Of a stretch of 64,000 bases of DNA, positions 12,729 through 22,346 are shown in pieces (the first letter of the stretch is position 1; each line of letters opens with the position of its first letter). The notes under the pieces were generated by a model, which saw nothing but the letters and a program-made list of their open reading frames with translations, searched no databases and was not told the origin of the DNA. Source of the stretch: an uncultured Actinomycetes bacterium (GTDB lineage: Bacteria > Actinomycetota > Acidimicrobiia > IMCC26256 > PALSA-610); assembly GCA_963812205.1 (NCBI GenBank), contig CAWEUJ010000004.1, forward strand, positions 1,257,315-1,321,314, read 5' to 3'. Both the position numbers and the translations under genes were made by a program.

Positions 12729-14135
12729 TCAGCCGCGGGCGCAGGACGCGCCGAGAGTGCGATCGTCGTTGGTCCACCCGGGCGACTGGGTATCGGGCCA
12801 GTAGTCGCCGGTGTGCTCGTCTTGTCGGTAGCCGACCGGTGCGGGCGAACCGCCGGCGAGTTCGGTGATGGCCTCGATGAGGCGGTCGATGTCGGCGGGA
12901 GAAGTCGAGATGCCCGCGCTGGCTCGTACGGCGCCGGGCATCTCACGCCGGTCGTGGCGCAGGACCGCTTGGCGATACGCGTTCACTTCGTCGGCGGGGA
13001 GGTCGAGCAGGCGGAGCAGGTAGGGGTGCGCGCAGAAGCAGCCGTGCCGGACCCCGATGCCGTACTCCGCGCTGAGTCGAGCCGCGACGAGCGCGTGATG
13101 CATGCCATCGATGATGAACGTCGCGAGCGGCAACGTCTCCGTTTCGAGACCGGGCCCGAGCAGGCGGACGCCGGGTATCGCGCTGAGTCCGGAGCGGAGT
13201 TGCGCCGACAGTCCGCGGTCGTGTTGCTCGATCCAGGCCCACCCGATGCGTTCGATCTCGTCGATCGCCGCGTGCAGCGCGACCGCACCGACGACGTTCG
13301 GTGAGCCGGCCTCTTCGCGTTCGGGTGGGTCGGTCCAGACGACCTCTTCGAGGTCGACCAGATCGACTGCGCCGCCGCCGGCCAAGAATGGGTCTCCGTC
13401 GGCGAAGGCGCGACGCGGGCCGACGAGCGCGCCCGCGCCGAACGGTGCGTACATCTTGTGGCCGCTCCACGCGACGAAGTCGACCGAGGCCGGCAGGGCC
13501 CGATGGGGTGCGACTTGCGCGGCGTCGAGGAACACCGGAATGCCGCGTTCGTGCGCGGCGGTGACGATGTCGTCGATCGGCGGGAGCCAGCCCGTGACGT
13601 TCGACGCGCCGGTGATGGCCAAGAGCTTGGGTCGCGGTGTGACATCGAGCGCGGCGACGACCGCGTCGGTCCCGAAGGTTCCCTCGGGTGCACACTCGAC
13701 GAACCGCGGGCGGCTCGCGCGCGCCCACGGCAGGAGGTTTGCGTGGTGCTCGACCACGGTCGTGACCACGACGTCGTCCGGGCCGAGCCGGAGTCGGTAC
13801 GCGAGGTGATTGATCGCCTCGGTCGTGTTCCGGCAGATGATCGCGATGTCGTCGCCGTCTGCGGGCCGCCCCGCGAATCGGAGCATGGCCGATCGCGCTT
13901 GTTCGTACGCGTTCGTCGCGGTTCGCGACTTGTAGCCGGCGCCGCGGTGCACGCTCGAGTACCACGGCATGAAATCGTTCACCCGGGCGGCAACGGCCGG
14001 GAGCGCGCTCGTGGATGCCGCCGCGTCGAGATTGAGGTAGCGGCGCGCGACACCGTCGACGCACGGGACCTCCACGTCGTCACCCATGAGCTCGATCGGG
14101 AGTGTCGACTCGCCGCTGTCGGCGGGACCTGACAT
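12729..14135 (-). CDS. Aminotransferase class V (cysteine desulfurase-like, PLP-dependent)
   Basis: The internal start MSGPADSG shares its A with the stop of the upstream methyltransferase gene (TGATG). It has the fold-type I pattern and SGHKMYAPFGAGAL (PLP lysine). Confidence 0.8.
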   Translation of the reverse strand: MSGPADSGESTLPIELMGDDVEVPCVDGVARRYLNLDAAASTSALPAVAARVNDFMPWYSSVHRGAGYKSRTATNAYEQARSAMLRFAGRPADGDDIAIICRNTTEAINHLAYRLRLGPDDVVVTTVVEHHANLLPWARASRPRFVECAPEGTFGTDAVVAALDVTPRPKLLAITGASNVTGWLPPIDDIVTAAHERGIPVFLDAAQVAPHRALPASVDFVAWSGHKMYAPFGAGALVGPRRAFADGDPFLAGGGAVDLVDLEEVVWTDPPEREEAGSPNVVGAVALHAAIDEIERIGWAWIEQHDRGLSAQLRSGLSAIPGVRLLGPGLETETLPLATFIIDGMHHALVAARLSAEYGIGVRHGCFCAHPYLLRLLDLPADEVNAYRQAVLRHDRREMPGAVRASAGISTSPADIDRLIEAITELAGGSPAPVGYRQDEHTGDYWPDTQSPGWTNDDRTLGASCARG

Positions 14136-14743
14136 CACCGCGCTCCGGTCGGTCGAGTTGCTCGTACGAGTACGTCGATCGCCGTCTTCTCGCCGTCGTC
14201 GGTCTGCACGGGACGCGCGACGCGCGCCGCCTTCACGACCTCGAGCCCTTCGATCGCGGCGGTGACGTCGTCGGGTCCGTACAGCACCGCCGAGTCTTGG
14301 GGGCCTCCCCAACCCTCGGTCGGGTTCGTGATGTCGTGGCCGACCACGAGCAGCGTTCCGCCCGGTGCGACCGCGTCGGCGGCATGCCGCAACGCTCGCG
14401 AGATCGCCGTTCCCGGAAGATGCAGGTACATGACGATCACCAGGTCGAAGCCGGCCGCGGTCGGCGCGTACTCGGTGACGTCGGCGGTTTCCCATCGCAC
14501 CGATACGCCTCGCGCCTCGGCAAGGCGGTGCGCCTTGCCGAGACCGACGGCGGAGAAGTCGACACCGGTCACATTCCAGCCGCGTTCGGCGAGCCAGACC
14601 GCGTTGCGCCCTTCGCCGCACGCGAGATCGAGCGCGCGGCCGGGCGCGAGCCCTTCGACCTCGGCAACGAGGAACCGGTTCGGCTCAGCCGTCCACACCA
14701 GCTCGTCACCGGCGTAGCGCTCGTCCCATGCGTTGTGATCCAT
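14135..14743 (-). CDS. Class I SAM-dependent methyltransferase (TehB/TPMT-like)
   Basis: The start MDHNAWDERY overlaps the upstream stop (TGATG). It has the SAM motif I LDLACGEGRNAVWLAERGWNVTGVDFS and resembles the tellurite/thiopurine methyltransferase type. Confidence 0.75.
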   Translation of the reverse strand: MDHNAWDERYAGDELVWTAEPNRFLVAEVEGLAPGRALDLACGEGRNAVWLAERGWNVTGVDFSAVGLGKAHRLAEARGVSVRWETADVTEYAPTAAGFDLVIVMYLHLPGTAISRALRHAADAVAPGGTLLVVGHDITNPTEGWGGPQDSAVLYGPDDVTAAIEGLEVVKAARVARPVQTDDGEKTAIDVLVRATRPTGAR

Positions 14744-15093
14744 CACGACACCACGGGCGGAACGAACTCGTCGAATGCGGCCAACGCCCGCGGCCCGTAC
14801 ACGCTCGCCGGTCCGCCGCCCATGAGCAGGCTGACGGCCAGCACCTCGACCACTTCCTCGCGGCTCGCGCCCTTCTTCGCCGCACCTCGGGCGTGGTACG
14901 CGATGCACCCGTCGCACTGCTGGGAGACCGCGATCGCGAGTGCGACGAGCTCTTTGACGTGCGCGGGAAGTCGGCCGGGCGCGAGTGCCTTCTCGTGCAG
15001 CGCGCTGAAGTCGGCCCAGGCTTCGGGGATTGCATGTCGCAGCTCGCGCGTGGGTTCTCGGAGCTCGGATATGACGTCGTGGAAATGGGCCAT
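14743..15093 (-). CDS. Carboxymuconolactone decarboxylase family (AhpD-like) protein with a CxxC motif
   Basis: 116 aa. It has KELVALAIAVSQQCDGCIAYHARGA, the AhpD-like CxxC signature. Confidence 0.8.
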   Translation of the reverse strand: MAHFHDVISELREPTRELRHAIPEAWADFSALHEKALAPGRLPAHVKELVALAIAVSQQCDGCIAYHARGAAKKGASREEVVEVLAVSLLMGGGPASVYGPRALAAFDEFVPPVVS

Positions 15094-15129: not shown

Positions 15130-15399
15130 TCACGAGCTGCATCGTGGTGTGATCCCGAATCGCCGTGCAATCAGCGACGCCGGGCAGTTGCCGACCGCGA
15201 CGAAGATCCACTGGTTGATCCCCACGAAGGTAGTGAGCAGCAAGAACCAGGGGCTGACGGTCGCGGCGAGCAGAACGCTGAGCAATGTCATCGTTCCCGC
15301 CAGCGCGAAGAGGACTCGTTCGAGGGGCCACCTCGGAGCAACCGGCGAGTTGGGCCGGTGCGCGTCGGTGGCGGTGTCGAGTTCGGACAGGTGAGCCAT
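15130..15399 (-). CDS. DUF2892 (YgaP C-terminal-like) small membrane protein
   Basis: The internal start is MAHLSELD. It has two hydrophobic helices and the conserved ...GINQWIFVAVGNCPASLI pattern. Confidence 0.65.
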   Translation of the reverse strand: MAHLSELDTATDAHRPNSPVAPRWPLERVLFALAGTMTLLSVLLAATVSPWFLLLTTFVGINQWIFVAVGNCPASLIARRFGITPRCSS

Positions 15400-15421: not shown

Positions 15422-17590
15422 TCAGTGACTGAAGTGGATATTGGGGAGGATGCGCTCGAGCCAGCGCGGGAGATACCAGTTGCGATCCCCGATGAGCGCC
15501 ATCGTCGCGGGGACGAGGAGTACCCGGACCACGGTTGCATCGAGGAGGACCGCCATCGCCAGGGTGAGGCCGAGCTCGGTCGGCGGTATGGGTCCGGTGA
15601 TGCCGAACGCGATGAACACGATGATCATGATCAACGCCGCGTTGGTGATGGGTCGACCGGTGCGGGCGATCCCTTCGCCGATGGCCCGGCGGGTGTCGCC
15701 GGTGGCTTCGTACCGTTCGCGGATCGCGGCGAGCAAGAAGAGCTGGTAGTCCATCGACAGGCCGAACAACAGAGCGAAGAAGAACAGTGGTGCCCAAGCG
15801 TCGACGAACGGTTGGTGCTGTATGCCGAGCAGCCCGGTACCGAAGCCGTGTTGGAAGACGAGGGTCGCGAACCCGAAGGCGGCGCCGACGGTCAGCAGGT
15901 TCATCAGGATCGAGGTGACCGCGATGACGAGGCTGCGGAAGACGATGAGCAGGAGAAGGAACGCGACGATCAGGATGATGCCGATCGCGTATGGAGCACG
16001 TCCGGTGAGCACCGCCGTGAGATCGCGGTTCTGCGCGGCCGGACCACCCACCTGCGCGCTGGGAACGGCCGTGGCGAGGCGGGCGCGCAACGTGTTGACG
16101 AGCGTTGCCGTGTGGGAGTCGTCGACCGGGGTCGAGCCGGTGACGCGTACGACGACGCGGCCCGTCGCTGCGGGCGCGGTGACGACGCGCGCATCGACCA
16201 CGCCCGCTACTGCGGCGGAGGTCCGGATGACGCCAGCCGCGTCGCCCGCCGGCGTGGTGACGAACGCCGGCGCTGCGGCACCGGGACCGAACGCGCCGAC
16301 CAGCATGTCGTAGCCGTCGCGGCTCGTGTTGCCCTTGTCGACCACGTGCGCGCCGGGCATGCCGAGATGCATACCGAGCGCGGGGGCGATGAGCGCGCCG
16401 AGCATGACGAGGCCGATGGCCAGCACCATCGCCGGTCGGCGCAGTGCAACGCCGGTCCACCGTTGCCAGCGGCTCTCGGCGGTGATGTCGGGATCCTCTG
16501 TGTTCTTGCGGACGAGCACGCGGTCGCCGAGACCGACGAGGAGCGCGGGCAACAGTGTGAGCGATGCCAGTGCGACGGCGACGACCGACAGGATCATCCC
16601 GAGCGCCATGGACCGGAAGACCATGACCGGGACGATGAATACCGCGGCGAGGGCCATGACGACGGTCAGCGCGGAGAGGAACACGGCCTTACCGGCCGTC
16701 GACATGGTGTTCTCGATCGCGGTGATCGCGTCCTTGCCTTCGGCGCGTTCCTCGCGGTAGCGACTGACGATGAACAAGCTGTAGTCGATGCCGACCGCCA
16801 GGCCGATCATCATCGAGAAGTTCATCGACCACACCGACAGCGGTGTGAACCATCCGAGGATGTGCAACAGCGCGAACCCGACGGCGATGCCGGCCAGCGC
16901 GAGCACCAACGGGAGGCCCGCCGCGATCAGCATGCCGAAGGCGACGAAGAGCAAGATCATCGTGGGTAGGCCGCTCACGAGCTCTGCCTTGTGCAGCGCC
17001 TCGGCGTTGATCTTGTTGAAGTCGCTCCAGACCGGCCATTCGCCGGTCACCTCTGCACGCGCGCCCGGAACCAGCGTCAGCTTGTGTACGTACGACCCGA
17101 GCTCACCTGCGGCGGCGGGTCGGTCTGCGTCTTTGTGCACGACCTGCGCGACCGGGATGAGCGCGGTGTGCCCGTCGGGTGATATCAGGCCGGCCGACGC
17201 CGGCAATGTGAGTGGGTTGGCGACGCCATTCGCGCGCGGCGCGTGCGCCAGCTGCGCCACGAGCTGCTGGAGCGGTGCCGGGTTCGTCGCGATCGGAGCC
17301 GCCTGGTGGTAGACGACGACCGGGTCTTCCGCTCCGAGTTGGGGGAAGTCACGGCGGATCTCGTCGCGCACCCGTTGCGCGGTCGAGCCCTGGGCCTCCC
17401 ACCCGGCACCGGAAAGCGCGCCGGTGAGCGTCAGCGCGAGGGGTGCGGCGGCGAACGCGAGGAGCAGCCAGACCGTGATGACGCTGCGCCGGCGGCGTGC
17501 CGAGAATGCCGCGAGGCGCGAGAACAGCGCCTTCGGGTCGGGCGGTCCCGACGGTTCGTGTCCGGTGACGATGTCGTGTGTGACGGTCAT
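15422..17590 (-). CDS. MMPL family (RND superfamily) transporter
   Basis: 722 aa from MTVTHDIV. It has 12-TM MMPL architecture with duplicated ...GIDYSLFIVSRYREE / GLSMDYQLFLLAAIRE motifs. Confidence 0.85.
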   Translation of the reverse strand: MTVTHDIVTGHEPSGPPDPKALFSRLAAFSARRRRSVITVWLLLAFAAAPLALTLTGALSGAGWEAQGSTAQRVRDEIRRDFPQLGAEDPVVVYHQAAPIATNPAPLQQLVAQLAHAPRANGVANPLTLPASAGLISPDGHTALIPVAQVVHKDADRPAAAGELGSYVHKLTLVPGARAEVTGEWPVWSDFNKINAEALHKAELVSGLPTMILLFVAFGMLIAAGLPLVLALAGIAVGFALLHILGWFTPLSVWSMNFSMMIGLAVGIDYSLFIVSRYREERAEGKDAITAIENTMSTAGKAVFLSALTVVMALAAVFIVPVMVFRSMALGMILSVVAVALASLTLLPALLVGLGDRVLVRKNTEDPDITAESRWQRWTGVALRRPAMVLAIGLVMLGALIAPALGMHLGMPGAHVVDKGNTSRDGYDMLVGAFGPGAAAPAFVTTPAGDAAGVIRTSAAVAGVVDARVVTAPAATGRVVVRVTGSTPVDDSHTATLVNTLRARLATAVPSAQVGGPAAQNRDLTAVLTGRAPYAIGIILIVAFLLLLIVFRSLVIAVTSILMNLLTVGAAFGFATLVFQHGFGTGLLGIQHQPFVDAWAPLFFFALLFGLSMDYQLFLLAAIRERYEATGDTRRAIGEGIARTGRPITNAALIMIIVFIAFGITGPIPPTELGLTLAMAVLLDATVVRVLLVPATMALIGDRNWYLPRWLERILPNIHFSH

Positions 17591-17607: not shown

Positions 17608-18360
17608 CTAGAAGACGAGGCGGTAAGCGACGAACCAAAGCGAGAATGCGACGAGCAGCACGCCGAAGGCGCGTTGGAGGTGTTCGGTACGAATGTGTTG
17701 AGCCCGGTGACTCATCGCCCACGACGCGGGAACCGAGCCCAGGGCGAACACGAGCGCGGCCGCCCAGTCGATGTGGCCGAGAGCCCAATGCGTGATGAGC
17801 GTCGGGACCGTCAGTGCGGCGATGACGACGAGGCTCGTTCCCGACGCTTGGCGCATCGACAGGCCGAGGACGAGCAGGTACGCCGGGACGAGCAGGAAGC
17901 CGCCCCCGTTCGCGAGCAACCCGGTGAACAACCCGACCGCCGCCGCGATCGCGGTGATCAGCACCGGCCGGTCACGGCGAGCGGAGCCGGCCGCGAGGCT
18001 CGCGGCCGAGATCGGGCGCAGGACGCGCACACCGACGACGCCGAGCACGACGCCCGACGCGACGAGCAGGGCAGGACCACCGACCACTCGTGACAGGAGA
18101 GCCCCGACGATCGTCGCGGGGATGCCGCCGATGAGCGACCACCGGGCCACGTCGGCGTCGACCTCGCCGCGGCGTGCGTACTGTCGCGCACCTGCGAGCG
18201 CGGCCGGAATCGTCGCCGGCAGAGGCGACGCGATCGCGGCGAAGCCCGACAGCCCCAACAGCGACATGATCGGGGTCGCGAAGGAGGAGCCGCCGACGCC
18301 GAACAGACCGAAGAGCGCGCCGACCACCAGTCCTGCGACTCCGACTCCCGCCAGTTGCAC
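17608..18360 (-). CDS. TauE/SafE (DUF81) sulfite-exporter family membrane protein
   Basis: It shows a Gly-rich multi-TM pattern (GLFGVGGSSFATPIM...GLLANGGGFLLVPAYL). The start is taken as the in-frame GTG at 18360, after the DUF302 stop at 18371. Confidence 0.8.
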   Translation of the reverse strand: MQLAGVGVAGLVVGALFGLFGVGGSSFATPIMSLLGLSGFAAIASPLPATIPAALAGARQYARRGEVDADVARWSLIGGIPATIVGALLSRVVGGPALLVASGVVLGVVGVRVLRPISAASLAAGSARRDRPVLITAIAAAVGLFTGLLANGGGFLLVPAYLLVLGLSMRQASGTSLVVIAALTVPTLITHWALGHIDWAAALVFALGSVPASWAMSHRAQHIRTEHLQRAFGVLLVAFSLWFVAYRLVF

Positions 18361-18370
18361 GAAGTGCCCT

Positions 18371-18766
18371 TCAGCCGGCGGCGCGAACGCCGAGGACGTC
18401 GACGGCCGCTTGCAGCTTGCCGGCGGCCTCGTCGGCGAGGTCGCGAAAGCGCGGATCGTCCATGAGTTCGAGCGGGTCGACGATCCGCACGCGCGTTCCG
18501 CCCTCGGTCGACTCGAGCACGACGTTGCACGGCAGGAGGAGCGCGACCGACGGGTCGATCTCGAGCGCACGGTGCGCGAGGGTGGGATTGCACGCGCCGA
18601 GGATCTTCAGCGGCGGGCGATCGACGCCCAGCTTCGCTTTCAACGTCGCGGCGACGTCGATCTCGGTGAGTACGCCGAAGCCCTGCGCACCGAGCGACTC
18701 GCGGATCGCGTGCTCGGCATCGGCGAGGGTCATCGCCACGGTGGTCTCGAAGGAGCGCATCATCAT
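18371..18766 (-). CDS. DUF302 domain protein
   Basis: The start MMMRSFETTV overlaps the CsoR-like stop (ATGA). GFGVLTEIDV...KILGACNP...LPCNVVL is the DUF302 signature. Confidence 0.8.
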   Translation of the reverse strand: MMMRSFETTVAMTLADAEHAIRESLGAQGFGVLTEIDVAATLKAKLGVDRPPLKILGACNPTLAHRALEIDPSVALLLPCNVVLESTEGGTRVRIVDPLELMDDPRFRDLADEAAGKLQAAVDVLGVRAAG

Positions 18767-19032
18767 GCCAACTTCAAGAACATGCGCTCGACGTCGTCGA
18801 GCGCGTAACCGTCTGCTTCGGCTTCTTCGGGTCGCTCGACGCAAAACGCGAGCCCGGCCGCGACCAACTTGAAGCCGGCCTGTTCGAGCGCTTTCGTCGC
18901 AGCCGAGATCTGGACCACGACCTCGCGACATTCACGCCCTTCCGACAGCATGCGCTCGACTGCTTGCACCTGGCCCGCGGCGCGCCGTAGTCGCTTGCGG
19001 ACGTCGTCGACGACGTTCTCGGGAATCTCCAT
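18763..19032 (-). CDS. CsoR/RcnR (DUF156) family repressor, CstR-like (two Cys, no His ligand)
   Basis: 89 aa from MEIPENVVDDVRKRLRRAAGQVQAVERML, with AAGGAGGA RBS upstream. Cys35 and Cys64 are present, but the position four residues before Cys64 is Gly rather than the Cu(I)-ligand His of CsoR. Confidence 0.8.
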   Translation of the reverse strand: MEIPENVVDDVRKRLRRAAGQVQAVERMLSEGRECREVVVQISAATKALEQAGFKLVAAGLAFCVERPEEAEADGYALDDVERMFLKLA

Positions 19033-19049
19033 CGGGTCCTCCTTGCCGC

Positions 19050-20141
19050 TCAGGCAGAGCAGCGGTTGGGACCGACCTCGAGTCGCTGGAGTTCCACCAG
19101 CGACAGCGGGGAGCGGCCCATGTTCGCGTTGATGATCTCGGCGTAGTTCGGTGGCCTCGGGGTAGTGCGTGCGACCGCCCATTCGACGAACCGGGCTTCG
19201 TCGAGCGCGAGGGACGGCAATGCGGCCCGCAACCGGCCGAGGCTGGTACCGACCGGCTCGGCCGGGGTGACGCGAACCCCGTCGCCGTAGTGGCCGGGAA
19301 GGACGAGCGTGTCGTCGGCCAGCGTGAGCACGCGTTCGTGCAGCGACCGATACAGGTTGTGCGCGAACTCCTCGGCGCGCTCGGCCAGATCGGGGCGGCC
19401 GACGCCGTCGACGAACAACGTATCGCCCGTCAACACGACGCGATCGCCCACGAAGTAGATCGTCGAGCCCTGGGTGTGGCCGGGCGTACGCAACGCGGCG
19501 ACCGACAGCTCGATGTCGGCGCCGAGAGGGAAACGATCCCCATCGTGGAGGGCTTCGTACGCGAAGTCGAACGTGTCGGCCGGGTTGAGGTGCAGCGACG
19601 CGTCCGAGCGCTCAGCGAGCGCGCGGGCCCCGGAGAGGTGATCGGCATGCAAGTGCGTGTCGAACACATGGCTGATTCGCCAGCCGTGCTCGGTCGCGAT
19701 CTCCGTGTAGACGTCGATATCGATCGACGGATCGATCACGAAGGCTTCGTCGCCGCCGACGGCACCGATGACGTACGAAAGACACCCTTTGCCGCGGCGC
19801 CGTGCCTGCACGATCCGAATGTCATCCAGTTCGACGACCACCCAGTCGTAGGTCGCGCCCCAGGCCACCATTCCGCCCCGGAGATTGGCGACCCGCCGGC
19901 CCTGAGCGGCGACGAAGTCGGCCGCCTGCGACGAACGGCTCCCCGAGGCGCACACCACGACGATCTCGCGGTCGCGTGGGAGCTCGTCGATGCGACCCGG
20001 GAGCAGGCCGATCGGGATGTTCTTCGAGCCGGGAATCGCCCATTCGGCGGCCTCGCTCGGTTCGCGCACGTCGAGTACGAGCGGTTCGTCGTCCGTCCCC
20101 AACCGCGCCGCCAGCTCGGCCGCGTCTATGTCTCGGTACAT
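19050..20141 (-). CDS. Rhodanese-MBL fold fusion (persulfide dioxygenase-sulfurtransferase, CstB/ETHE1-like)
   Basis: 363 aa from MYRDIDAAEL, with GGGGAG RBS. It has the rhodanese active-site loop CASGSRS and the MBL motif THLHADHLSG. Confidence 0.85.
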   Translation of the reverse strand: MYRDIDAAELAARLGTDDEPLVLDVREPSEAAEWAIPGSKNIPIGLLPGRIDELPRDREIVVVCASGSRSSQAADFVAAQGRRVANLRGGMVAWGATYDWVVVELDDIRIVQARRRGKGCLSYVIGAVGGDEAFVIDPSIDIDVYTEIATEHGWRISHVFDTHLHADHLSGARALAERSDASLHLNPADTFDFAYEALHDGDRFPLGADIELSVAALRTPGHTQGSTIYFVGDRVVLTGDTLFVDGVGRPDLAERAEEFAHNLYRSLHERVLTLADDTLVLPGHYGDGVRVTPAEPVGTSLGRLRAALPSLALDEARFVEWAVARTTPRPPNYAEIINANMGRSPLSLVELQRLEVGPNRCSA

Positions 20142-20198
20142 CTGAGTACTCCCCGATCGAGGTGACCGCGACGGCTTCTGTGGGGTGTTCCGAGCGGA

Positions 20199-20234
20199 TA
20201 CACCGCCGTGTAACCAGTATACCCCGGGGGGTAT
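20199..20234. promoter_or_regulatory. CsoR/CstR-type operator: ATACCCC-GG-GGGGTAT (20219-20234) plus degenerate TACACCGCCGTGTA (20199-20212)
   Basis: A G/C-tract flanked by an ATAC/GTAT inverted repeat is the described architecture of CsoR-family operators. It lies 58-93 nt upstream of the rhodanese-MBL start, in the divergent intergenic region. Confidence 0.6.
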
Positions 20235-20518
20235 TCCGGAGGGCTCTCGAATCTCACGGCTTCGCGCCCACGGGTCGCGTCGCGGGCAAGGGCGCGGCAG
20301 GAGCCGCGCCGAGGGACGGGGTCGATCTCGCCGGGAGTCACTGATGAGGCCATCGAGTCGATCTTCCCCGGACCCGGCCGCTCCGAACACCCGCGAAGGT
20401 CGTACGTGTGCGGCCGAAGGTCCCGCGTGCCTCGGGCGGCAGCGGCAGGGCCGAACGTCCGCTGCGGCGGAGGCGCACGTCCCTAGGCGGCCCTGGGCCG
20501 GTCGGCCACGCTGAGGTC

Positions 20519-21652
20519 GTGACGTTCGTCGGTCTCGTCCTGCACAACGTGCTCCGCCGCCGCATGCGCGCGGTCGTGACCGCGATCGCCGTTGCGATCG
20601 GTGTGACCGCGGTCCTCACCCTCGGGGTCCTGACCACGTCGCTGCGCCAGACGGCCGTCGCCATCCTCCGGACCGGGAACGCCGACTTCAGCGTGTCGCA
20701 GAAGGGCGCGTCGGACATCCTCTACAGCGCGCTCTCGCAGGGCGACATCGACACCCTGCGTGCCACCCCCGGCGTGGAGGCCGCGACGGGGGTGTTCGTC
20801 GCGACCGGGAAGATCAACGCCAAGCACCCGTTCTTCATCGAGATCGGGATCCGCACGGCCGACCAACCCGAGTTCGGCGTGACGGTGCTGACCGGCCGTT
20901 CGTACCGCGAGACGGCGTCGAGCGCGCAGGGTACCGGTGAGATGATGCTCGGGTATCGCGCCGCGAAGGACTTCGGTGTCCGCGTCGGCGACACGTTCGC
21001 GGTCGAAGAGCGCAAGTTCCGCGTCGTCGGCCTCTTCTCGACCGGAAACGTCTTCGGTGACGCGGCCGGAATGTTCCCGCTCACCGACCTGCAGGGGTGG
21101 CATCGTCAGCCGGGCGTGTACACGCTCGCGTTCGTCCGGGCCCGGCCGAACGTCTCCATTCCCGATCTCCGCCGTCGCATCGAGAACGCCAGCCCGCGGC
21201 TCGCGACCGCACGCAGTGAGAGTGACTACGGGCGCGTCGACCGGAACCTCGTCCTGATCACCGCCGCGAACGTGGGAGGGTCGATCCTCGCGCTCTTCAT
21301 CGGCGCGACGGGTGTGATGAACACGTCGCTGCTGTCGTTCTACGAGCGCCTGCGGGAGTTCGGTCTGCTCCGCGCCGTCGGGTGGAACCGGCGGCGAGTC
21401 TTCCGCCTGGTGCTGGGTGAGGCGCTGATCGTCAGTCTCGTCGGAGCCGGCGCGGGCATCGGTATCGGCTTGGGCGCGATCCAGGTGCTCACGCACGTGG
21501 ACGCGCTGGTGGGCGTGTTCCAGCCCGTGTACGAGGCGTGGCTCTTCGGCCGCGCGCTCCTGTTCGCGTTCGCGATGGCGATTCTCGGCGCCCTGTACCC
21601 GGCCGTGCGCGCCGCCATGCTCACACCTCTGTCGGCGCTCCAGCATGAGTGA
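20519..21652 (+). CDS. ABC transporter permease, FtsX/MacB-like
   Basis: It has an N-terminal TM, a large periplasmic domain and a C-terminal FtsX 3-TM module (LREFGLLRAVGW). The start is taken as the GTG at 20519, 2 nt after GAGG. The ORF track starts at 20408. Confidence 0.75.
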   Translation: MTFVGLVLHNVLRRRMRAVVTAIAVAIGVTAVLTLGVLTTSLRQTAVAILRTGNADFSVSQKGASDILYSALSQGDIDTLRATPGVEAATGVFVATGKINAKHPFFIEIGIRTADQPEFGVTVLTGRSYRETASSAQGTGEMMLGYRAAKDFGVRVGDTFAVEERKFRVVGLFSTGNVFGDAAGMFPLTDLQGWHRQPGVYTLAFVRARPNVSIPDLRRRIENASPRLATARSESDYGRVDRNLVLITAANVGGSILALFIGATGVMNTSLLSFYERLREFGLLRAVGWNRRRVFRLVLGEALIVSLVGAGAGIGIGLGAIQVLTHVDALVGVFQPVYEAWLFGRALLFAFAMAILGALYPAVRAAMLTPLSALQHE

Positions 21653-22346
21653 TCGTCCCGTTCCCGCGCTCGAGTTGATCGACGTCGTGAAGTCGTACGG
21701 CGGCGGTCGCGGGGTCGTGCTCGATGGCGTCTCGCTCACTGTCGGCCCGGGCGAGTTCGTGGTGATGGTCGGCCCGTCGGGGGGTGGGAAGTCGACCGCG
21801 CTGCACCTGATCGCGGCGCTCGACCGCCCGAACTCGGGAACCATCCGCGTCCACGGTCGCGACCTCGCCCACGGCCGCCACTTGGACCGCTACCGCCGCC
21901 AGGAGATCGGGCTCGTCTTCCAACTCCACAACCTTCTCCCGCACCTCGATGCGCGCCAGAACGTCGAGATCGTCATGCTCGGGACGAGGACACACCGGGG
22001 TGCTCGCCGCGCGCGTGCAGTCGCGCTGCTCGACCGGGTGGGCCTCGGGCGCCAGGCCCGCGTGCGCCCACCCGAGCTGTCCGGCGGTGAACGTCAGCGC
22101 ATCGCAGTGGCACGCGCCTTCGCCAATCAGCCCAGGCTCGTCCTGGCGGACGAACCGACCGGCAGCCTCGACGAGGAGAGCGGCACCGCGGTGATCGCGA
22201 TGCTGAGGTCGTGTTGCGACGAGGGCGGCGCGGTACTGGCGGTGAGTCACGATCCCCGGCTCACCGCCGCGGCCGACCGCGTCGTGCGGCTCGCGGACGG
22301 CCGCATTCACCCGGTCGGGGGCGCGCAGGCTCCGATCGCGCGCTGA
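21645..22346 (+). CDS. ABC transporter ATP-binding protein (MacB/LolD type)
   Basis: It has Walker A GPSGGGKST, signature LSGGERQR and Walker B LVLADEPT. It overlaps the permease stop by 8 nt. Confidence 0.9.
   Translation: MSDRPVPALELIDVVKSYGGGRGVVLDGVSLTVGPGEFVVMVGPSGGGKSTALHLIAALDRPNSGTIRVHGRDLAHGRHLDRYRRQEIGLVFQLHNLLPHLDARQNVEIVMLGTRTHRGARRARAVALLDRVGLGRQARVRPPELSGGERQRIAVARAFANQPRLVLADEPTGSLDEESGTAVIAMLRSCCDEGGAVLAVSHDPRLTAAADRVVRLADGRIHPVGGAQAPIAR

Follow-up and report, generated by a model that had tools for sequence, protein, structure and literature searches.

A 64,000-nucleotide stretch of DNA from an uncultured Actinomycetes bacterium of the class Acidimicrobiia (contig CAWEUJ010000004.1, positions 1,257,315 to 1,321,314 of the forward strand; hereafter the window) carries on its minus strand the gene of a repressor of the CsoR/RcnR family, 89 amino acids (aa) long. 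Its sequence and surroundings make it likely that this protein, although from the Acidimicrobiia, belongs to the actinomycete CstR/ScCsoR clade, and that it represses a sulfane-sulfur detoxification operon by the mechanism proposed below. The most likely signal for the regulator is reactive sulfur, not copper. An initial annotation of this DNA had already proposed a CstR-type, sulfur-responsive repressor of a persulfide-detoxification operon that does not sense copper. The computational evidence supports that proposal: the Cys, Gly and Cys at the ligand positions are conserved throughout the relatives, the metallo-β-lactamase (MBL) domain encoded in the operon resembles persulfide dioxygenases (PDOs), the operator occurs in nearly all related loci, and the genome has a separate CsoR. 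It also agrees with the characterised Streptomyces coelicolor regulator ScCsoR (Lu et al. 2020, PMC7533328) and with cluster 3 of a published sequence similarity network (SSN) of the family (Fakhoury et al. 2021, PMC8643695).

The regulator and its ligand positions

The regulator is a member of the CsoR/RcnR superfamily (PF02583; 70.6 bits against a cut-off of 22.8, E 1.5e-19). It contains Cys35 and Cys64 with no His between them, and position 60 is Gly. We aligned the protein to solved structures by HMMER and to the genome's own canonical CsoR by MAFFT. In the HMMER alignments Gly60 stands opposite the Cu(I)-ligand His of the Geobacillus CsoR 4m1p ('rHanhC') and the Streptomyces lividans CsoR 4adz ('eHlrhC'), and opposite an Asn of the Streptococcus pneumoniae CstR 7mq1. 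In the MAFFT alignment it faces the His of the genome's own CsoR. Both alignments bear out the earlier observation of two Cys and a Gly at the CsoR His position, and no His ligand is present. The residue preceding Cys35 is Glu in the regulator and Tyr in the aligned CsoRs (4m1p, 4adz and the genome's own).

Conservation of these residues was read from an alignment of 204 sequences, made up of the window protein, its relatives from 80 related loci, and the top 120 hits in the database. The 80 loci (608 kb in total) are also the basis of all operator and neighbour counts given below for related loci. Cys35 is present in 203 of the 204 sequences, and Gly60 and Cys64 are present in all of them. 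The two arginines of the DNA-binding RLxR motif (R14 and R17, within RLRR at 14-17) and the Gln of helix α2, Q41, are likewise invariant. In the S. lividans CsoR, the substitutions R57A and Q81A leave no detectable DNA binding (PMC3902906). Database relatives of this regulator type number more than 1,500.

The fingerprint of the regulator is x-C-x-C, because Cys35 and Cys64 are conserved, the Pro of FrmR and the His set of RcnR and InrS are absent, and a Gly occupies the position of the copper-binding His. Cu(I)-sensing CsoRs have a His four residues before the second Cys, neighbours of the copA/copZ type and a TAC-X9-GTA operator (= ATACC-N7-GGTAT). The window has Gly60 at that position, an N6 operator, and genes for a rhodanese-PDO fusion (Rhd-PDO), DUF302, TauE and MMPL proteins as neighbours. 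CstR proteins have Cys at positions X and Z and no metal ligand at W or Y. Position Y is Gly60 in the regulator, and position 3 (Ile or Leu) is what we take to be W. The neighbourhood also follows the CstR pattern, with genes for the detoxification of sulfide or sulfane sulfur in the window (rhodanese, PDO, TauE), in the related loci (in some of them also sulfide:quinone reductase, SQR) and in named actinomycetes. The N-terminus reads M-E-I-P, so that Pro is internal at position 4 rather than the Pro2 of the formaldehyde sensor FrmR, and position 60 is Gly rather than His; with the FrmR model of NCBIfam the protein scores 26.6 (cut-off 133). The Ni/Co sensors RcnR and InrS have H-C-H-H or H-C-H-C, and the regulator has no His at position 3, Y or Z; with the RcnR model it scores 24 (cut-off 138). 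The best NCBIfam match is RicR, far below the cut-off.

In the host genome (about 4.1 Mb, 87% complete) PF02583 is matched by two genes only, that of the regulator and that of a canonical C-H-C CsoR. This CsoR (L001, G000:C4:71203-74445) is followed by a permease that ends in a Cys-rich YHS/TRASH-like motif, not by CopA or CopZ. Its N7 operator sits within the N-terminus of the longest open reading frame (ORF), so the true start is probably a later GTG. The genome thus has one copy of the regulator type described here. Several other Acidimicrobiia genomes have two or more (L034, L067, L068, and the same-contig pairs L047/L056 and L031/L083), with as many as five operators in a stretch of 8 kb; in those relatives the regulon has grown.

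The operator and the promoter

The promoter region of the operon contains the following elements:

20219 to 20234, palindromic and without strand: operator, a perfect palindrome ATACCCC-NN-GGGGTAT (= ATACC-N6-GGTAT = TAC-N8-GTA), ATACCCCGGGGGGTAT, exact match
20212 to 20237, minus strand: conserved promoter block GGA-ATACCCCCCGGGGTAT-ACTGGTT, from ten orthologous promoters and the flank profile of 49 sites
20216 to 20221, minus strand: TATACT, a putative -10 hexamer that shares bases with the right operator arm
20149 to 20154, minus strand: ribosome-binding site GGGGAG as read from the sequence, 7 nt before the ATG of gene 1
20198 to 20213, without strand: 'degenerate second site' (ATACACCGCCGTGTAA) with core TACACCGCCGTGTA, present in the sequence and probably due to chance

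The operator lies 77 nt before the first start codon of the operon. With up to two mismatches allowed, 0.03 matches are expected per window. Exact ATACCCCNNGGGGTAT sites occur twice in the 4.1-Mb genome and the reversed control does not occur. The ATACCCC-GG-GGGGTAT palindrome of the initial annotation is therefore exact and above chance. Its description as a textbook CsoR operator holds for the palindrome and fails for the spacing, which is N6 and thus 1 bp shorter than the N7 of true CsoRs.

The operator is conserved among relatives. It is found upstream of the orthologous operon in L005-L013, and across ten orthologous promoters, the window's included, GGA(AT)-ATACCCC-NN-GGGGTAT-AnTGGTT is kept while the surrounding sequence is not. 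We scanned the related loci for ATACC-N6-GGTAT with at most one mismatch, using spacers of N3-N5 and N7-N10 as controls. The N6 motif occurs 164 times, in 79 of the 80 loci, and the other spacers 0 to 5 times. Enrichment of N6 only is a strong internal control for the operator. ATACC-N6-GGTAT in target promoters is also the mark of the actinomycete ScCsoR clade, and the window has it. In related loci the operators end 26-138 nt upstream of the start codon of either the regulator gene or the rhodanese-MBL (Rhd-MBL) gene.

The 49 promoter-proximal sites suggest where the promoter lies. Most of them have TATAnT at operator positions 14-19, which makes the right operator arm the probable -10 element as well, although the flank is partly symmetric.

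The degenerate second site pointed out by the initial annotation did not hold up. It departs from ATACC-N6-GGTAT at 3 of the 10 specified bases, and the window contains 73 operator matches with three mismatches where 60 +/- 8 are expected. It persists, more degraded, only in the nearest relative, L006. In the promoter alignment it was not found in the eight other close orthologous promoters (L005, L007-L013), whose leaders are shorter. We reject it as a functional operator, as it is neither above chance nor conserved past L006. Genuine tandem operators do occur in more distant loci, with start-to-start distances of 21-26, 31-34 and 44 bp.

A wider regulon in the host genome was also rejected. 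The loose motif (at most one mismatch) has 21 matches, within the range of 4-121 obtained with control palindromes, and credible sites are limited to the two perfect extended ones. The other perfect site, ATACCCCTAGGGGTAT, is outside the window at G000:C4:1528398-1528413 (L004 1501-1516). It stands 25 bp before the remnant of a paralogous dioxygenase gene, and a gene of the EamA/drug-metabolite transporter (DMT) type follows. The remnant covers residues 89-265 of the window protein and is about 79% identical to its gene in nucleotide sequence, with one frameshift and without the rhodanese domain or the C-terminus. A duplicate of the gene seems to have decayed here and to have left its operator as an orphan, and the frameshift could alternatively be a sequencing error.

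The putative rhodanese-persulfide dioxygenase fusion

The first gene of the operon encodes a fusion of an N-terminal rhodanese domain and an MBL domain. The best solved relatives of the MBL domain are 3tp9 (E 3e-31) and BpPRF 5ve3 (E 6e-31), and further PDO matches are Myxococcus xanthus PDO 4ysb, CstB 3r2u and human ETHE1 4chl. These PDO matches range from E 3e-31 to 2e-18 and are closer than glyoxalase II (GloB, E 3e-13). The MBL motifs are H163xH165xD167H168, H222, D240 and GRPDL, and the candidate iron-ligand residues are among them. Cys64 of the rhodanese loop (CASGSRS) aligns with the catalytic Cys of BpPRF. With candidate iron ligands in place and PDOs closer than glyoxalase II, the sequence of the MBL domain is closest to persulfide dioxygenases. 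The operon context points to sulfane-sulfur detoxification, not metal efflux, because of the families of genes next to the operators, the closeness of the MBL domain to persulfide dioxygenases and the rhodanese Cys.

The predicted operon in the window

The minus-strand array, in which the regulator is the second gene, probably runs to nine genes, which are predicted to be co-transcribed:

Gene 1, 19050 to 20141, minus strand: N-terminal rhodanese and MBL fusion, 363 aa (Pfam PF00581 and PF00753)
Gene 2, 18763 to 19032, minus strand: the CsoR/RcnR-family repressor, 89 aa (PF02583), with C35, G60, C64, RLRR at 14-17 and Q41
Gene 3, 18371 to 18766, minus strand: DUF302 protein, start overlapping the regulator stop (ATGA)
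Gene 4, 17608 to 18360, minus strand: TauE/SafE-family putative sulfite exporter, GTG start, 10 nt past the DUF302 stop
Gene 5, 15422 to 17590, minus strand: MMPL-family resistance-nodulation-division (RND) transporter, after a 17-nt gap from TauE
Gene 6, 15130 to 15399, minus strand: small membrane protein of the YgaP-like transmembrane (DUF2892) type, assigned from synteny and a weak Pfam match (E 0.004, below cut-off)
Gene 7, 14743 to 15093, minus strand: carboxymuconolactone decarboxylase (CMD)/AhpD-like CxxC protein, assigned by family match and synteny
Gene 8, 14135 to 14746, minus strand: TPMT/TehB-like S-adenosylmethionine methyltransferase, start overlapping the CMD stop
Gene 9, 12729 to 14138, minus strand: aminotransferase class V or cysteine-desulfurase-like ORF, family assigned by eye, start overlapping the methyltransferase stop

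The rhodanese-MBL fusion, DUF302 and TauE had all been named as neighbours of the regulator by the initial annotation, and the Pfam matches agree. The regulator starts 17 nt past the stop of the Rhd-MBL gene. Across the array the intergenic gaps are 10-36 nt and three junctions overlap. DUF302 adjoins the regulator in about 30 related loci, and the gene order is kept in L005-L012. A hairpin with a 9-bp stem (GCGCTCGACGACGTCGAGCGC) lies at 18784-18804 on the minus strand, within the last 15 codons of the regulator and just before the overlapping DUF302 start. It is probably no terminator, because it lacks a T-tract. Terminator-like matches in the window fall within coding sequence.

An FtsX-type permease and an ABC ATPase are encoded at 20408-22346 on the plus strand, divergent from the operon promoter region. 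We rejected this pair (20.4-22.3 kb) as a member of the regulon. It is syntenic only in L006 and, because no other relative shares the arrangement, is probably outside the regulon.

Operators and neighbours in related loci

The genes next to the operators in the related loci are those of Rhd-MBL (19 loci), thioredoxin (19), the regulator itself (18), MMPL (11), the TPMT/TehB-like methyltransferase (8), TauE (6) and an SQR-like flavoprotein (2). Sporadic neighbours are an AhpD-like protein, an Fe-S protein with 4Fe-4S dicluster domains and a PIG-L-family deacetylase. The regulator is the first gene behind its own operator in 31 of the 80 loci. It follows Rhd-MBL in 19, and in 27 another gene stands between operator and regulator. 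The regulator was correctly placed as the second gene of the operon by the initial annotation, which called this arrangement unusual; with the regulator behind another gene in 46 of the 80 loci, it is not.

Thioredoxin is thus the joint commonest operator neighbour (L010, L013 and 17 further loci) and precedes Rhd-PDO in some operons. The window operon has no thioredoxin gene. The MMPL protein is 82-92% identical among relatives, compared with 68-78% for Rhd-PDO, and its gene is syntenic in L005-L012. It is linked to the regulator or to operators in at least 11 loci (L005-L015, L014, L030, L036), and in some loci it is divergent from the regulator with tandem operators between them. We found no link between MMPL transporters and persulfide regulons in the literature. 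The TPMT/TehB-like methyltransferase gene is directly behind an operator in its eight loci (e.g., L018 3281-3886), and a relative matches Pfam PF13649, PF05724 and PF03848. Part of the response may thus be the methylation of a sulfur species (or of one of selenium or tellurium).

Proposed mechanism and its alternatives

We propose that the reduced repressor, a tetramer by homology, would bind the single ATACCCC-NN-GGGGTAT operator with two tetramers per site. Binding would block transcription because the right operator arm holds the likely -10. Thiol persulfides or polysulfides would modify C35, bridge it to C64 of the neighbouring protomer, or both, and the modified repressor would leave the DNA and the operon would be derepressed. 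The rhodanese-persulfide dioxygenase fusion could then take sulfane sulfur to sulfite or thiosulfate, and the TauE-type exporter would be made as well. The DUF302 protein, the MMPL transporter, the DUF2892-type membrane protein, the AhpD-like CxxC protein, the TPMT-like methyltransferase and the cysteine-desulfurase-like enzyme would be produced together with them. Because the repressor gene is inside the operon, induction would make fresh reduced repressor and so form a negative feedback loop. Repressor from the same transcript would restore repression once sulfane sulfur drops. Copper would be handled by the separate canonical CsoR, whose operator has the same half-sites 1 bp further apart.

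Some observations weigh against this interpretation. Overall, the regulator is closer to the Cu-sensing CsoR 4m1p (E 5e-10) than to the firmicute CstR 7mq1 (E 1e-6), so that it is ligand positions and context, and not identity to the nearest neighbour, that carry the CstR-type assignment. A scan for consensus sigma-70 promoters found no full promoter, a test that is uninformative for a high-GC actinobacterium, and the overlap of operator and -10 is accordingly something that we infer. The two-Cys CsoR-family protein TTHA1953 of Thermus thermophilus is oxidised by H2O2 or Cu(II) in vitro and forms disulfide-linked dimers (PMC10318464). Two-Cys proteins of the family can thus also react with H2O2 or Cu(II), and a specific response to reactive sulfur is a prediction.

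TTHA1953 also speaks for reading the regulator as a general sensor of thiol oxidation or electrophiles. H2O2, HOCl, quinones, nitroxyl or disulfide stress would then oxidise C35-C64' and derepress the operon, and persulfide would merely share the role of inducer with other compounds, or would not be the physiological inducer at all. Thioredoxin and the AhpD-like CxxC protein in the regulon of the relatives would fit redox stress too. We nevertheless consider a general sensor unlikely. The core partners, PDO-rhodanese, TauE and in some cases SQR, are specific to sulfide and sulfane-sulfur metabolism, and the characterised relative ScCsoR responds to polysulfide (PMC7533328).

It is very improbable that the regulator senses a product of the pathway, sulfite or thiosulfate, by S-sulfonation of the Cys pair and mainly controls export by TauE. 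The TauE-family exporter in the operon would suit such a sensor, and early work on the Staphylococcus aureus CstR reportedly described a reaction with sulfite. Later S. aureus work, however, is said to point to persulfide or polysulfide, not sulfite, as inducer. It would also be poor control logic for a detoxifying dioxygenase to be induced by its product, and it is polysulfide that releases ScCsoR from DNA (PMC7533328).

Least probable is a second sensor of copper, or of another thiophilic metal, that uses two Cys ligands only and co-regulates sulfur genes with metal stress: overall similarity is highest to Cu-CsoRs and the best, sub-threshold NCBIfam match is RicR, but an invariant Gly stands where the His ligand would be, Glu takes the place of the Tyr found before the first Cys of the aligned CsoRs, no copA or copZ was found beside the regulator in the 80 related loci with the queries used, a canonical CsoR with distinct operator spacing is present in the same genome, and CstR is described as Cu(I)-insensitive in cells (Fakhoury et al. 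2021, PMC8643695).

Comparison with known systems

Among characterised proteins, the predicted reactive-sulfur sensor of the window can best be compared with ScCsoR of S. coelicolor. ScCsoR has C37 and C66, binds a 16-bp ATACCn6GGTAT site, is released by polysulfide and represses genes for a PDO, a rhodanese, TauE and itself (Lu et al. 2020, PMC7533328). Both proteins are from Actinomycetota and have the x-C-x-C fingerprint, with Cys 29 residues apart (C37/C66 and C35/C64) and an ATACC-N6-GGTAT operator. Persulfide dioxygenase, rhodanese and TauE are among the targets of ScCsoR and among the predicted targets of the window protein, which is also predicted to share the autoregulation. The layout differs. 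The window has one long operon with a single operator and the regulator as gene 2, whereas S. coelicolor has three separate promoters, and the Scpdo promoter has two sites, at -48 and at -9 (bsII) (PMC7533328). The rhodanese domain is C-terminal on the dioxygenase in S. coelicolor and N-terminal in the 363-aa protein of the window. The window operon adds genes for DUF302, MMPL, DUF2892, AhpD-like, TPMT-like methyltransferase and cysteine-desulfurase-like proteins.

SSN cluster 3 contains ScCsoR and Rv1766 and holds 3,175 largely uncharacterised actinomycete x-C-x-C proteins that are candidate sensors of thiol persulfide (RSSH) (Fakhoury et al. 2021, PMC8643695). We infer from its defining features that the window regulator belongs to this cluster, with plasmid homologues as a surrogate comparison. 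The regulator is 42-47% identical to plasmid homologues from Pseudonocardia autotrophica, Streptomyces sp. NA03103 and Arthrobacter sp. These have GRxC...G-L-x-x-C, N6 operators and MBL, rhodanese, TauE, DUF302 and trxA neighbours.

The CstRs of S. aureus, Enterococcus faecalis and Streptococcus (SSN clusters 4 and 10; 7mq1) share with the regulator the fold family and two conserved Cys without a His ligand. They repress rhodanese, PDO and TauE-type genes from an operator that is a TAC...GTA palindrome with G/C tracts. They are distant, however (E 1e-6), and at the His position SpCstR has Asn, where the window protein has Gly. The cst operator of Streptococcus mitis, ATACC-CTTATGG-GGTAT, is N7 (PMC8643695), and the window operator is N6. 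The N6 spacing is therefore a trait of the actinomycete clade and not of CstRs generally.

The Cu(I)-sensing CsoRs (S. lividans 4adz, Geobacillus thermodenitrificans 4m1p, Bacillus subtilis and the genome's own) share with the regulator the Pfam family, the RLxR motif and Gln, two Cys, and ATACC/GGTAT half-sites with G/C tracts. The window regulator differs in having no His ligand, Glu for Tyr before the first Cys and no copZA context. Its half-sites are also 1 bp closer, as TAC-N8-GTA, than those of CsoR operators, which are TAC-X9-GTA and thus ATACC-N7-GGTAT (PMC3902906). The site of the genome's own CsoR, ATACCCTACGGGGGTAT, is N7. In the lineage of this co-resident CsoR (30 CsoR loci from the same taxonomic family as the host), N7 occurs in 20 loci and N6 in 1.

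TTHA1953 is likewise a two-Cys CsoR-family repressor of sulfur-oxidation genes that works beside a Cu-CsoR without cross-binding (PMC10318464). It differs in its operator, TACNNTACNNNNGTANNGTA, its Sox-gene targets and its phylum. Adding or removing one base between the repeats of its operator costs 10-15-fold in Kd (PMC10318464), which makes the 1-bp difference in spacing a plausible insulator of the two paralogues in the present genome. Co-resident paralogues with identical half-sites may be insulated mainly by such spacing, TAC-N8-GTA for the sulfur sensor and TAC-N9-GTA for the copper sensor. This would be a clean natural example of two paralogous repressors with the same half-site preference that could avoid cross-talk through 1 bp of spacing.

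The dioxygenase of the window can be compared with the PDO-rhodanese fusions CstB (3r2u), BpPRF (5ve3) and 3tp9. All combine an ETHE1-like non-haem-iron MBL domain and a catalytic rhodanese domain in one chain, and the metal-ligand motifs and the rhodanese Cys are kept. In the window protein the order is reversed, with the rhodanese domain first, and there is one rhodanese domain and no pseudo-rhodanese. The persulfide regulon of the Acidimicrobiia may have gained genes for an MMPL exporter, a membrane protein of the DUF2892 type, a CxxC protein like AhpD, a methyltransferase like TPMT and an enzyme resembling cysteine desulfurases. Together with DUF302, the MMPL transporter and the methyltransferase are unexpected candidates in sulfane-sulfur homeostasis. 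An extended regulon, if true, would point to an undescribed branch of sulfane-sulfur metabolism, for example methylation or RND-type export, or both, of a sulfur-bearing compound. We put forward only tentatively the linked pair of ideas that 1-bp spacing insulates paralogues across Actinomycetota and that the persulfide regulon is extended in Acidimicrobiia. The current picture of CsoR-family sensors is unchanged. The regulatory unit is real, well-formed, strongly conserved and of an already known actinobacterial type. The regulator type characterised in Streptomyces now extends to uncultured Acidimicrobiia of soil and peat, where it is abundant and often has several operators per locus.

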